Shown: one piece after another, positions 59,101-64,000 of the stretch | Layout: the number at the start of each line of letters is the position of its first letter | How positions within the stretch are numbered: the stretch's first letter is position 1 | Assembly: GCF_057098645.1 (NCBI RefSeq) | Contig: NZ_CM169472.1 | Reading direction: 5' to 3' (one strand) | Length of the DNA: 64,000 nt | Position numbers: made by a program

Positions 59101-62100
59101 CCACGGTTGCAGCGTGCTCACGTTTTAACCCAGCCTGGCAGAGTTTATTCTCAATTAGCTGGTGGAGTGTTTCCCGACTGATTTTCATCTGTCTTCCTTT
59201 TTAACGACGGTGTGAAGCATGACTGCAATTAACATACAGGGAAAATATCTGGATTATGTGATCCAGACAGGCAAAAAAATATAGTTAGAATTTATTTGAT
59301 AATCTTCGCGCTTTTAACCTGGTTGTTTAAAACAACCATGCTTATTAAAAAATAACGCGTAATAGTCTGGCGGTTATTTGAATTCTTTTGTTAATAATCC
59401 CTGTGTGATATTCATCACCTTATTTACTCGTTGTCATCGATACCGTAATCGCCACATTAACACTGCTCGTGCAATTGCCATGGGTGCAATTTTTAAGGAG
59501 TTGTTATGATCCACGCCTTTATTAAAAAAGGGTGTTTTCAGGATTCGGTCAGTTTAATGATTATTTCACGAAAACTCAGCGAATCAGAAAATGTTGATGA
59601 TGTTTCCGTAATGATGGGTACGCCCGCCAATAAAGCGTTATTAGATACCACAGGTTTCTGGCATGACGATTTTAATAACGCCACGCCGAACGATATTTGC
59701 GTGGCAATTCGTAGCGAAGCGGCGGATGCGGGGATCGCGCAGGCGATTATGCAGCAGCTTGAAGAGGCGCTAAAACAACTGGCGCAGGGGTCAGGCAGCA
59801 GCCAGGCGTTGACGCAGGTGCGTCGCTGGGACAGTGCCTGTCAGAAATTACCCGATGCCAATCTGGCGCTGATTTCAGTGGCTGGCGAGTATGCGGCGGA
59901 GCTGGCGAATCAGGCGCTGGATCGCAACCTCAACGTGATGATGTTCTCCGATAACGTTACGCTGGAAGATGAAATCCAACTTAAAACCCGCGCGCGGGAA
60001 AAAGGCTTGCTGGTGATGGGGCCAGACTGCGGTACGTCGATGATTGCCGCCACGCCGCTGGCTTTTGCTAACGTGATGCCGGAAGGCAATATTGGCGTCA
60101 TTGGCGCTTCCGGTACCGGGATTCAGGAGCTGTGTTCGCAGATTGCGCTGGCAGGGGAGGGAATTACTCACGCGATTGGCCTTGGCGGGCGCGACCTCAG
60201 CCGTGAAGTGGGCGGCATCAGTGCGCTAACAGCGCTGGAAATGCTCAGTGCAGACGAGAAAAGCGAAGTGCTGGCATTTGTTTCAAAACCACCTGCCGAT
60301 GCTGTGCGTCTGAAAATTGTTAATGCCATGAAAGCAACCGGCAAACCGACGGTGGCGCTGTTTTTAGGTTATACCCCGGCGGTGGCCCGCGACGAGAATG
60401 TCTGGTTTGCCTCCTCGCTGGATGAGGCCGCACGCCTGGCTTGCCTGCTTTCACGCGTTACGGCGCGACGTAACGCGATAACGCCTGCCAGCAGCGGATT
60501 TATTTGCGGTTTGTATACCGGCGGTACGCTGGCTGCCGAAGCGGCGGGATTACTTGCCGGACACCTTGGCGTGGAAGCCGATGATGCCCATCATCACGGC
60601 ATGATGCTCGACGCCGATGGTCACCAGATTATTGACCTCGGCGATGATTTCTACACCGTCGGGCGTCCCCATCCGATGATCGACCCAACCTTACGCAACC
60701 AGTTAATTACCGATCTCGGCGCTAAACCGCAAGTGCGTGTGCTGCTGCTTGATGTCGTGATTGGCTTCGGTGCGACCGCCGATCCTGCCGCCTCGCTGGT
60801 AAGCGCCTGGCAAAAAGCCTGTGCTGCGCGTTCAGACAATCAACCACTGTATGCCATTGCCACGGTGACAGGCACTGAACGTGACCCGCAATGCCGCTCG
60901 CAGCAAATCGCCAAGCTGGAAGATGCGGGGATTGCGGTCGTGAGTTCGCTACCGGAAGCCACCTTGCTGGCGGCAGCGTTAATTCATCCGCTCTCGCCTG
61001 CCGCACAGCAACACACACCGTCATTACTGGAAAACGTCGCCGTGATTAACATCGGATTACGCAGTTTTGCGCTGGAGCTACAAAGCGCCAGCAAACCGGT
61101 TGTGCATTACCAATGGTCGCCAGTCGCCGGCGGCAATAAAAAACTGGCTCGTTTATTAGAACGTTTGCAATAAGGGGTTCCCATGTTTACATCAGTGGCG
61201 CAAGCCAATGCTGCGGTTATCGAACAAATTCGTCGCGCTCGTCCACACTGGCTGGATGTGCAACCGGCTTCTTCACTTATCAGCGAACTAAACCAGGGCA
61301 AAACACTGCTTCACGCCGGGCCGCCAATGCGCTGGCAGGAGATGACCGGACCCATGAAAGGGGCGTGCGTGGGCGCATGTCTGTTCGAAGGTTGGGCGAA
61401 AGATGAAGCGCAGGCGCTGGCAATACTGGAGCAGGGGGAAGTGAACTTCATTCCTTGTCACCATGTGAATGCCGTCGGGCCAATGGGCGGTATTACTTCT
61501 GCCAGTATGCCGATGCTGGTGGTCGAGAACGTGACCGACGGCAACCGGGCGTACTGCAACCTCAACGAAGGTATCGGCAAAGTGATGCGTTTTGGCGCTT
61601 ACGGCGAAGATGTCCTGACTCGCCATCGCTGGATGCGCGATGTGTTAATGCCAGTATTAAGCGCGGCGCTGGGGCGCATGGAGCGCGGTATCGATCTCAC
61701 GGCAATGATGGCGCAGGGCATTACGATGGGCGATGAGTTCCATCAACGCAATATTGCTTCCTCAGCACTGTTAATGCGTACGCTGGCCCCACAAATTGCT
61801 CGCCTCGATCATGATAAACAGCACATTGCGGAAGTGATGGATTTCCTCAGCGTGACCGATCAGTTCTTCCTCAACCTCGCGATGGCTTACTGCAAGGCGG
61901 CGATGGATGCTGGCGCGATGATCCGCGCAGGCAGCATCGTCACGGCAATGACCCGCAACGGCAATATGTTCGGGATTCGGGTAAGCGGGCTGGGCGAACG
62001 CTGGTTTACTGCGCCTGTAAACACTCCGCAAGGTCTGTTTTTCACCGGCTTCTCGCAGGAGCAGGCGAACCCGGATATGGGCGATAGCGCGATTACCGAA

Positions 62101-64000
62101 ACCTTTGGTATCGGAGGTGCGGCAATGATCGCAGCGCCTGGCGTAACGCGCTTTGTCGGTGCGGGTGGCATGGAAGCGGCCAGGGCGGTATCTGAAGAGA
62201 TGGCGGAAATTTACCTTGAACGCAATATGCAGTTGCAGATCCCAAGCTGGGATTTTCAGGGCGCGTGCCTGGGGCTGGATATTCGTCGCGTGGTAGAAAC
62301 CGGCATTACGCCACTCATCAATACCGGTATCGCCCATAAAGAGGCGGGGATCGGGCAGATTGGCGCAGGCACCGTGCGGGCACCGCTGGCGTGCTTTGAA
62401 CAGGCGCTGGAAGCACTGGCTGAAAGCATGGGGATTGGTTGAGGAACGCGCAATGACGATCATCCATCCTCTGCTTGCCAGTAGTAGCGCACCGAATTAT
62501 CGCCAGTCCTGGCGGTTAGCGGGAGTGTGGCGGCGGGCGATTAACCTGATGACGGAAAGCGGCGAACTGTTAACGCTGCATCGTCAGGGTAGTGGTTTCG
62601 GCCCTGGAGGATGGGTGCTTCGCCGCGCTCAATTCGATGCGTTATGCGGTGGATTATGCGGCAATGAACGACCACAGGTTGTGGCTCAAGGGATTCGCCT
62701 CGGGCGTTTTACGGTTAAACAGCCACAGCGTTATTGTTTGCTGCGTATTACGCCGCCTGCGCATCCTCAACCGCTTGCAGCTGCATGGATGCAACGCGCG
62801 GAGGAAACCGGGCTTTTCGGGCCACTGGCGTTGGCGGCAAGCGATCCGCTGCCTGCTGAGTTACGCCAGTTTCGTCACTGTTTTCAGGCCGCGCTCAATG
62901 GCGTTAAGACCGACTGGCGGCACTGGCTGGGTAAAGGCCCCGGATTAACGCCGAGTCATGATGACACGCTGAGCGGAATGCTGCTGGCGGCCTGGTATTA
63001 TGGCGCTTTAGATGCGCGCTCCGGTCGTCCGTTTTTTGCCTGTTCCGACAATCTGCAACTCGTTACCACAGCGGTGAGCGTCAGTTATTTACGTTATGCC
63101 GCGCAAGGATATTTCGCCTCGCCACTCCTGCACTTTGTTCATGCTCTGAGTTGCCCGAAACGTACCGCTGTTGCGATTGATTCGCTGCTGGCGCTGGGGC
63201 ATACGTCAGGGGCAGATACACTGCTGGGGTTCTGGCTTGGTCAACAATTATTACAAGGAAAACCATGAAAACACTGGTTGTAGCTCTTGGGGGCAATGCC
63301 TTGCTTCAGCGCGGTGAGGCGCTGACGGCAGAAAATCAATATCGCAATATCGCCAGTGCTGTACCCGCGCTGGCGCGCCTGGCCCGTTCTTATCGGCTGG
63401 CGATTGTTCACGGCAACGGGCCGCAGGTGGGGCTGCTGGCATTGCAGAATCTGGCGTGGAAAGAGGTAGAACCGTATCCGCTGGATGTGCTGGTGGCAGA
63501 AAGTCAGGGGATGATTGGCTATATGCTGGCGCAGAGTTTGAGCGCACAGCCGCAGATGCCGCCCGTGACGACGGTGCTGACGCGCATTGAGGTTTCGCCT
63601 GATGATCCGGCGTTTTTGCAGCCAGAGAAATTTATTGGTCCGGTTTATCAGCCAGAAGAACAAGAGGCACTGGAAGCGGCTTACGGCTGGCAGATGAAAC
63701 GTGATGGTAAATATTTACGCCGGGTGGTGGCGTCTCCGCAACCGCGTAAAATTCTCGACAGCGAAGCCATCGAGTTGTTGCTCAAAGAGGGGCATGTGGT
63801 GATTTGCAGTGGCGGCGGCGGTGTGCCTGTGACGGATGACGGAGCAGGGAGTGAAGCAGTGATTGATAAAGATCTCGCCGCTGCGTTGCTCGCCGAGCAG
63901 ATTAATGCAGATGGACTGGTGATCCTCACCGATGCTGATGCGGTATATGAAAACTGGGGAACGCCGCAGCAACGCGCCATTCGCCATGCCACACCGGATG

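Follow-up and report, generated by a model that had tools for sequence, protein, structure and literature searches.

Region 59506-64000 of the window, the 64,000-nucleotide stretch of contig NZ_CM169472.1 analysed here, is almost certainly (a probability of about 95%) the ordinary and already characterised allFGHK operon of an Escherichia coli from the O145:H28 lineage, where it forms the final section of the allantoin regulon. The function of these genes is known, and the operon completes the anaerobic breakdown of allantoin. Its significance for the window is small, the operon being standard, intact and characterised.

Organization and conservation of the operon

The four genes are tightly spaced on one strand and divergent from allDCE; allD, on the other strand, starts 317 nt upstream (Table 1). 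The junctions were read from the sequence: fdrA and ylbE are joined by TAA-GGGGTTCCC-ATG, a gap of 9 nt, and ylbE and ylbF by TGA-GGAACGCGCA-ATG, a gap of 10 nt, while ylbF and ybcF share a 4-nt ATGA overlap. The packing described in an earlier, sequence-only reading of this DNA was thereby confirmed, as was its uninterrupted 419-codon frame for ylbE (61183-62442), which contains no internal stop. Purine-rich runs resembling Shine-Dalgarno sequences precede each start (AGGAG, AAGGGG, GAGGA and AGGAAA). All four frames are intact, ybcF being judged over the first 245 codons within the window; the full gene measures 894 nt in a near-identical O145:H28 record. A longer ylbF ORF starting with TTG at 62360 was regarded as a merely mechanical maximum, and the ATG at 62453 was preferred.

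Table 1 Features of the allantoin region at the 3′ end of the window.
Feature	Position	Strand	Description
allE-allC-allD	56086..59188	-	Divergent operon; from ORFs and the annotation of K-12 and an O145:H28 record
allD-allF intergenic and promoter region	59189..59505	.	Divergent, 317 nt
Putative AllS-binding fragment	about 59303-59362	.	K-12 -203/-144 from ATG, placed by position (PMC12535856)
Putative ArcA-P-binding fragment	about 59364-59423	.	K-12 -142/-83 from ATG, placed by position (PMC12535856)
allF (fdrA)	59506..61173	+	ATG start, 555 codons
allG (ylbE)	61183..62442	+	ATG start, 419 codons, no internal stop
allH (ylbF)	62453..63268	+	ATG start, 271 codons
allK (ybcF)	63265..64000	+	5′ 736 nt, 245 of 297 codons; gene cut by the window end

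The arrangement of the four genes is far beyond chance, because of 5,426 complete E. coli genomes, 5,423 contain the 4.5-kb operon stretch at an identity of 95-100%, and 5,407 cover at least 80% of it, making the operon all but universal in E. coli. Among the matches listed, its annotation is fdrA, ylbE, ylbF and ybcF throughout, and ylbE is named normally in all 29 full-length matches sampled across the ranking, in a listing that shows no pseudogene flags. In RM12761 the 4.5-kb operon is 100% identical to the window, but there are 19 mismatches and one indel over the first 50 kb, and 3 nt differ within allD. Several records of the O145:H28 lineage tie over 25 kb of the window.

The K-12 operon (b0518, b4572/b0519, b0520 and b0521) has the same genes, order, spacing and neighbours, with allDCE upstream and purK downstream. 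Its products align to those of the window without indels, at 98.2% identity for FdrA (10 residue differences), 99.5% for YlbE (2 differences) and 100% for both YlbF and YbcF, the latter over the 245 aa present; seven of the ten FdrA substitutions fall between residues 326 and 470. Judged from these alignments, the window operon is orthologous to and colinear with that of K-12.

Function established in K-12

AllF, AllG and AllH of K-12, with AllF as the large subunit, constitute an oxamic transcarbamylase (OXTCase), which interconverts oxalurate + Pi and oxamate + carbamoyl phosphate and was termed a novel transcarbamylase (Kim and Kim 2024, PMC11326118). Oxalurate is the product of AllD, and the enzymes of allE-allC-allD catalyse the preceding steps (PMC11326118). 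Deletion of allF, allG or allH leaves K-12 with no oxamate from allantoin, and no single gene brings oxamate formation back in the triple mutant (PMC11326118). Co-purified AllF-AllG-AllH formed oxalurate from oxamate and carbamoyl phosphate in an assay without CoA or ATP, needing Mg2+ alone; the product was identified by LC-MS and NMR, and the KM values were 1.3 mM for carbamoyl phosphate and 36.9 mM for oxamate (PMC11326118). The enzyme was assayed in the reverse direction only, because oxalurate was unavailable. In an allG deletion, allG alone did not complement (Table 1 of PMC11326118), and the requirement for AllG rests on co-purification and on a deletion that is possibly polar.

YbcF (AllK) was described in 2022 as a catabolic carbamate kinase: the purified enzyme forms ATP from carbamoyl phosphate and ADP, with measured kinetics, and RT-PCR of all gene combinations showed that the four K-12 genes are co-transcribed (PMC9843812). 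A further study reported a phenotype for the allF deletion, an activity-enhancing D296Y variant of FdrA, no succinyl-CoA synthetase (SCS) activity for FdrA, and oxamate as a dead-end product (PMC8550087). In vivo, we infer phosphorolysis of oxalurate with Pi to oxamate and carbamoyl phosphate, from which AllK would then produce ATP, NH3 and CO2.

The sequence-only reading had proposed that the cluster beside the allantoin genes processes oxalurate/oxamate to carbamoyl phosphate, and the literature agrees (PMC11326118, PMC9843812, PMC12535856). Its description of YbcF as carbamate kinase-like is likewise borne out by the kinetics of the purified enzyme (PMC9843812) and by a match to NF006926 over the cut-off. 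By orthology, the OXTCase activity, co-transcription and AllS/ArcA-dependent anaerobic induction known from K-12 would carry over to the window operon.

Promoter region and regulation

In K-12, AllS and ArcA serve as activators of the operon, and both bind the allD-allF intergenic region (2025, PMC12535856). Transcription requires anaerobiosis together with allantoin (4,007 versus 15-105 Miller units from a reporter); this activity was lost in allS and arcA deletion mutants, and binding was observed by EMSA with crude lysates (PMC12535856). The intergenic region measures 317 nt in the window and 316 nt in K-12. The two regions agree throughout their 3′ 134 nt; of 13 differences, 12 lie within 59305-59371. 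The AllS-binding part of the window thus contains a divergent segment and, at 59320-59338, a perfect palindrome additional to the K-12 sequence. As no other part of the intergenic region diverges as strongly as the AllS-binding segment, regulation in the window strain may differ quantitatively from that of K-12; one possibility is that the O145-lineage palindrome alters induction of the operon.

A scan of the intergenic region for the sigma-70 consensus gave 2 matches against 1.7 expected, which is not above chance. A genomic-SELEX peak for NtrC has been placed inside ylbE and classed as an fdrA/ylbF spacer (PMC8743547). The NtrC-like motif TGCACC-N5-GGTGCA, with up to 3 mismatches allowed, did not occur near about 61274, the position equivalent to the published peak, and its 50 occurrences across the whole window were treated as equal to the 44 expected by chance.

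The ylbE frame and the K-12 records

The sequence-only reading described K-12 ylbE as annotated as frameshifted and contrasted it with the intact gene seen here. The K-12 gene is itself intact: the two loci are colinear, and the window ylbE differs from the 1260-nt CDS of NC_000913.3 (b4572, YP_009029994.1) at 11 nt and 2 aa (E38Q and A200T) without any indel. The contrast therefore does not hold, and the frameshift annotation can be traced to U00096.2 and the W3110 record. At nt 252-256 the window has a run of GGGGG, as does MG1655 v3. In the W3110 RefSeq record (NC_007779.1), which still flags ylbE as 'frameshifted', the sole differences are G>A at nt 114 and the loss of one G from this run (GGGG), leading to a stop at codon 87.

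The frameshift allele was found in 4 of 5,419 records, namely W3110 and three others that match the old K-12 reference, U00096.2, in size and have identical coordinates; these three we take to be reference-guided assemblies. Resequenced MG1655, C600, DH5alpha, J53, ME8067 and ER1709 all contain the extra G. Studies based on U00096.2 treat ylbE as a pseudogene in that older MG1655 record (PMC5460176; PMC3045373), and in PMC5460176 the changes at 547,694 (A>G) and 547,831 (+G) are described as 'converting a pseudogene into an ORF'. EcoGene 3.0 states that errors of U00096.2 detected by NGS were confirmed and that their correction was due in U00096.3, with ylbE not explicitly mentioned. Taken together, these observations indicate that the 'frameshifted ylbE' is a property of old K-12 reference records, not of K-12 cells, and that an intact ylbE is the norm.

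A genuine mutation private to the sequenced W3110 isolate, and hence a polymorphism inside K-12 and not a record error, is an improbable explanation of the frameshift. The record was never corrected, and random sequencing errors would not usually produce two linked differences at a distance of 138 nt. W3110 is also said to have been sequenced independently of MG1655, by Hayashi et al. in 2006, which counts in favour of such a mutation. However, both differences also stood in the old MG1655 record, at identical coordinates, which a private mutation hardly explains, and the only other carriers are the three U00096.2-sized records. Furthermore, A547694G is listed relative to AP009048 for a resequenced W3110 derivative, in a table that covers point mutations only and hence not the G-run (PMC5405962). 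Hardly credible is a true pseudogene in the K-12 lineage, which would make the intact window copy a meaningful strain difference: the W3110 flag and the U00096.2-based papers speak for it, but NC_000913.3 encodes all 419 aa, the resequenced strains carry the extra G, MG1655 forms oxamate from allantoin where the allG deletion mutant does not, and cloned allFGH yields active enzyme.

It seems that the pseudogene label has had practical effects, both in the choice of an integration site and in the classing of the SELEX peak as a spacer. The loci ygaY, ycgH and yeeL are annotated as pseudogenes. Alongside loci such as these, ylbE is used as an integration site in W3110 metabolic-engineering strains (PMC12175537). 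An insertion in ylbE would disrupt allG and probably also the downstream allH and allK.

Protein families and a possible mechanism

All four products match their families well over the curated cut-offs. FdrA scores 1043.6 bits against NCBIfam NF004760 (cut-off 433) and contains the Pfam domains CoA_binding (PF02629, 48.6 bits) and Ligase_CoA (PF00549, 129.1 bits). YlbE matches PF06545 'AllG' at 326.7 bits, YlbF matches PF11392 AllH above its cut-off, and YbcF reaches 514.7 bits against the carbamate kinase equivalog NF006926 (cut-off 416) although truncated to 245 of its 297 residues, in addition to matching Pfam AA_kinase. The Pfam names are already AllG and AllH; in RefSeq, numerous records, among them that of the near-identical O145:H28 strain, keep 'acyl-CoA synthetase FdrA', 'DUF1116' and 'DUF2877' despite the published function. 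In AllH, the motifs GxGxGLTPSxDD and GHTSGxD are invariant. K-12 FdrA residues 82-555 are available as PDB 3DMY, and an AllG homologue has been solved as 3CLQ and left uncharacterised. Neither the PDB nor the papers searched yielded a structure of the AllFGH complex, and no solved structural relative, including any ATCase/OTCase-like one, was matched to a high-confidence AllH model.

The RefSeq name would make FdrA an acyl-CoA synthetase, for example an oxamate:CoA ligase, with YlbF alone as the transcarbamylase, as in a 2012 context prediction by CanOE. This assignment is very unlikely. The two Pfam domains, the similarity to SCS alpha and the CanOE prediction (summarised in PMC11326118) favour it, but FdrA falls far below the curated cut-offs of the SCS alpha (53.3 versus 336 bits) and ACD alpha (20.9 versus 567 bits) families, and Pfam profile searches revealed no ATP-grasp domain within the operon that could serve as partner. 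The phosphohistidine loop is absent as well, and FdrA showed no detected SCS activity, oxamate being a dead-end product (PMC8550087). Finally, neither CoA nor a nucleotide is required for activity, and the triple mutant is not rescued by any one of the genes.

The assignment to a three-subunit transcarbamylase leaves room for a tentative proposal, based on one alignment of SucD, FdrA and YahF and one published mutant. In this alignment the GHAGA phosphohistidine loop of SucD falls on a 5-column gap in FdrA and YahF, and the SGT loop is invariant in all three (S202-G203-T204 in AllF). We take the loop histidine to be His246 of E. coli SucD. D296, whose published D296Y replacement enhances activity, sits exactly at the lost His-loop position. 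AllF would thus have kept the 'site I' scaffold of succinyl-CoA synthetase, with its S202-G203-T204 loop, and lost the phosphohistidine loop; its pocket would probably take phosphate or carbamoyl phosphate, by analogy with a half-reaction of SCS, acyl-X + Pi -> acyl-phosphate + X, and AllH would contribute the remainder of the active site. AllFGH could then be a mechanistically new transcarbamylase that combines a degenerated SCS site I, with D296 replacing the His loop, and an active-site part from AllH, although we consider this somewhat less probable than even. Such a mechanism would be a trait of the whole family and not specific to the window.

Comparison with known systems

With the SCS alpha/ACD superfamily, AllF has in common the fold, the CoA_binding and Ligase_CoA domains and the SGT loop. 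It differs in the missing GHAGA loop and ATP-grasp subunit, in needing neither CoA nor nucleotide, and in scores far under the cut-offs. A closer relative is the paralogous E. coli cluster yahE-yahF-yahG-(yahH)-yahI-yahJ, which comprises the same four protein families: YahF is 37% identical to FdrA, YahG 45% to YlbE, YahE 25% to YlbF and YahI 38% to YbcF, and YahF, like FdrA, lacks the phosphohistidine loop. This cluster lies outside the window at another locus, and is distinguished from allFGHK by placing the DUF2877 gene first, by the extra amidohydrolase yahJ and by its LysR-type neighbour yahB.

The ATCase/OTCase/YgeW family catalyses the same class of reaction as AllFGH, in which a carbamoyl moiety passes between carbamoyl phosphate and the nitrogen of an amino or amide group. 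These enzymes are homotrimers, whereas AllFGH has three different subunits; no OTCace-type domain (OTCace_N or OTCace) was detected in any of the four proteins by Pfam profile search, and the predicted AllH model matched no ATCase/OTCase-like structure. The metabolic logic is common to both, since catabolic OTCase also pairs with a carbamate kinase (arcB-arcC), as AllFGH does with AllK.

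Gene organization and distribution

The feature at 59506-64000 is real, and the sequence-only reading described it and interpreted its function correctly, but it is an ordinary, already known operon. Four packed genes, among them an uninterrupted 419-codon ylbE, were confirmed in the ORFs. The sequence has a 9-nt gap at fdrA/ylbE, a 10-nt gap at ylbE/ylbF and an ATGA overlap at ylbF/ybcF, with a purine-rich Shine-Dalgarno-like stretch ahead of every junction. We took the ATG as the ylbF start; the mechanical ORF list reaches further, to an upstream TTG. Upstream of fdrA lie, in the usual order, allS, allA, allR, gcl, hyi, glxR, allW, allB, ybbY and glxK, and, divergent from fdrA, allE-allC-allD, all of them part of the allantoin regulon.

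Features of the window
Feature	Position	Strand	Description
fdrA (allF)	59506-61173	+	ORF, 555 aa
ylbE (allG)	61183-62442	+	ORF, 419 aa, no internal stop
ylbF (allH)	62453-63268	+	ORF, 271 aa counted from ATG
ybcF (allK)	from 63265, past window end	+	245 of 297 codons inside window
Giant SiiE/BapA-like adhesin gene region	3758-29331		between ybaT and cueR, with secretion genes
TolC-family gene	3758-5113		flanks adhesin
Adhesin ORF 1	5216-8938		1,240 aa
Adhesin ORF 2	8996-25993		5,665 aa
Type I secretion genes	25997-28159, 28156-29331		flank adhesin

Elsewhere in the window, an internal stop breaks the adhesin gene into two ORFs, and the region holds internal repeats of about 73% identity. Between ybbP and mnmH, at about 42560-42720 on the minus strand, lies a small gene for a dinQ-like type I toxin, as annotated in the near-identical O145:H28 record, whose coordinates are shifted by a few nt relative to the window; K-12 has the rhsD element there.

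The records that match the interval 59506-64000 at 100% identity include E. coli O145:H28 RM12761. Of 5,426 complete E. coli genomes, 5,423 carry it at 95-100% identity, 5,407 of these with at least 80% coverage. The whole window belongs to the O145:H28 lineage, though it is not strictly identical to RM12761. Its first 50 kb differ from that strain by 19 mismatches and one indel, and allD (58139-59188) has 349 codons, as in K-12, and is annotated as 1047 nt in RM12761. Strain A30 (comparison locus L008, NZ_CP092500.1, 6167-7393) is a rare natural loss of the operon: an IS1A element occupies the site of a deletion from gcl through most of ybcF, which takes fdrA-ylbE-ylbF and leaves only the carbamate kinase gene's 3' end, adjoining purK.

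Ammonia-oxidising archaea and comammox MAGs are reported to carry the same gene set, as is hypervirulent K. pneumoniae ST23 (PMC7718023), whose genome papers list fdrA, ylbE, ylbF and arcC together with the allantoin island. The statement that K. pneumoniae lacks genes for oxamic transcarbamylase and carbamate kinase (PMC11326118) contradicts these papers, and probably holds only for strains without the island.

The supposed K-12 ylbE frameshift

The locus was flagged because the sequence-only reading took ylbE to be frameshifted in K-12, and this sole unusual-looking point stems from an outdated annotation. By the reading's own criterion that view is refuted for MG1655: in the current record (NC_000913.3) ylbE (b4572, YP_009029994.1) is annotated as an unbroken CDS of 1260 nt; aligned with it, the window copy is colinear, with 11 nt and 2 aa differences (E38Q, A200T) and zero indels. 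The W3110 RefSeq record (NC_007779.1) keeps a 1259-nt 'frameshifted' pseudogene. A three-copy alignment, window included, places exactly two differences between W3110 and MG1655 v3: a silent G>A at nt 114, and GGGGG>GGGG at nt 252-256, leading to a stop at codon 87. In old coordinates these are 547,694 A>G and 547,831 +G, given as 'mutations' in papers based on the older MG1655 record (PMC5460176); for NCM3722, a frameshift was said to have 'restored an intact ancestral gene' (PMC3045373). According to EcoGene 3.0, errors in U00096.2 found by NGS were independently confirmed, with correction due in U00096.3 (PMC3531124), a statement that, judging by the sequences, would apply to ylbE, although the gene is not named there.

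A 261-nt probe for the W3110 allele, matched against 5,419 records, was found at 100% in only four: W3110, CIT, LIM and CAR. The last three share genome length (CIT, 4,639,673) and ylbE coordinates with the old K-12 reference, and we therefore take them to be reference-guided assemblies. All four records keep the GGGG/A114 allele, flagged 'frameshifted'; it lies at 4582-5840 in comparison locus L002 (NC_007779.1) and 1441-2699 in L007 (NZ_CP026028.1). Every other K-12 derivative among the matches listed (two resequenced MG1655, C600, two DH5alpha, J53, ME8067, ER1709) has the extra G. Resequencing of a W3110-derived strain against AP009048 gave A547694G (PMC5405962), and MG1655, unlike its allG deletion mutant, makes oxamate from allantoin (PMC11326118). 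The intact state of ylbE is thus the normal one; that the frameshift kept in the W3110 record is real in W3110 cells is improbable. The gene serves as an integration site in W3110 engineering papers (PMC12175537).

Function of allFGHK

The sequence-only guess, that oxalurate or oxamate is processed to carbamoyl phosphate with a carbamate kinase-like YbcF, proved correct in K-12 tests (PMC8550087, PMC9843812, PMC11326118). The proposal began, in the summary of PMC11326118, as a 2012 context prediction by Smith et al. The four K-12 genes are co-transcribed, and YbcF, once purified, acts as a carbamate kinase (KM 0.47 mM for carbamoyl phosphate; PMC9843812). Deletion of fdrA blocked oxamate formation and shifted flux to glyoxylate and oxalate, D296Y raised oxamate yield, and FdrA had no SCS (succinyl-CoA synthetase) activity (PMC8550087). 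Single deletion of allF, allG or allH abolished oxamate, which only allFGH together restored in the triple mutant; allG alone did not complement its deletion, and no test of allF plus allH without allG was found in the published account (PMC11326118). Assayed in the reverse direction only, in a mix of Mg2+ and buffer alone, co-purified His-AllF, AllG and AllH-His converted oxamate and carbamoyl phosphate to oxalurate (product by LC-MS and NMR; KM 1.3 mM for carbamoyl phosphate, 36.9 mM for oxamate); the stoichiometry is a guess (PMC11326118).

By orthology, the genes of the window are therefore assigned to allFGHK. AllD would supply oxalurate in vivo, which with phosphate would give excreted oxamate plus carbamoyl phosphate, which AllK presumably converts to ATP, NH3 and CO2. 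DUF1116 and DUF2877 are already renamed AllG and AllH in Pfam, and newer RefSeq annotations read 'oxamate carbamoyltransferase subunit AllH family protein'. Relative to K-12, YlbE has 2 aa differences and YlbF and YbcF have 0. FdrA has 10, of which 7 fall within residues 326-470; D296 is kept. By alignment, the site of the gain-of-function substitution D296Y (PMC8550087) falls in the segment replacing the SCS alpha phosphohistidine loop (FdrA 292-301, window 60379-60408).

Regulation

In K-12, anaerobiosis and allantoin are both needed for expression to go from 15-105 to about 4,000 Miller units, and mutants deleted for allS or arcA lose it; AllS and ArcA each shift allD-allF intergenic fragments (PMC12535856). 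Twelve of the 13 differences between window and K-12 in this region cluster at 59305-59371, within the AllS-binding fragment of the published work. At 59320-59338 the window, unlike K-12, has a perfect 9-bp inverted repeat, TGGTTGTTT-A-AAACAACCA, which overlaps the predicted AllS motif centre (-181). This 121-nt segment has at least 99% identity in only 42 records and 90-95% in 3,205, and was undetected by megablast in 871 genomes, although the genes on either side reach 97-99% identity. The fdrA/ylbF spacer is given in PMC8743547 as the site of an NtrC genomic-SELEX peak (old K-12 coordinate 547,672). That coordinate is inside ylbE (nt ~92), at about 61274 in the window, where no NtrC-consensus-like site was found.

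Comparison with known systems

The operon shares the transcarbamylase reaction class but falls outside the ATCase/OTCase family, because a Pfam domain search found no such domain in its proteins. AllF has the fold class of SCS and the NDP-forming acyl-CoA synthetases (ACD) but, by alignment, fails their catalytic hallmark. K-12 allFGHK and the window locus are the same system. Within E. coli, the uncharacterised yahE-yahF-yahG-yahI cluster is its closest relative, at 25-45% identity.
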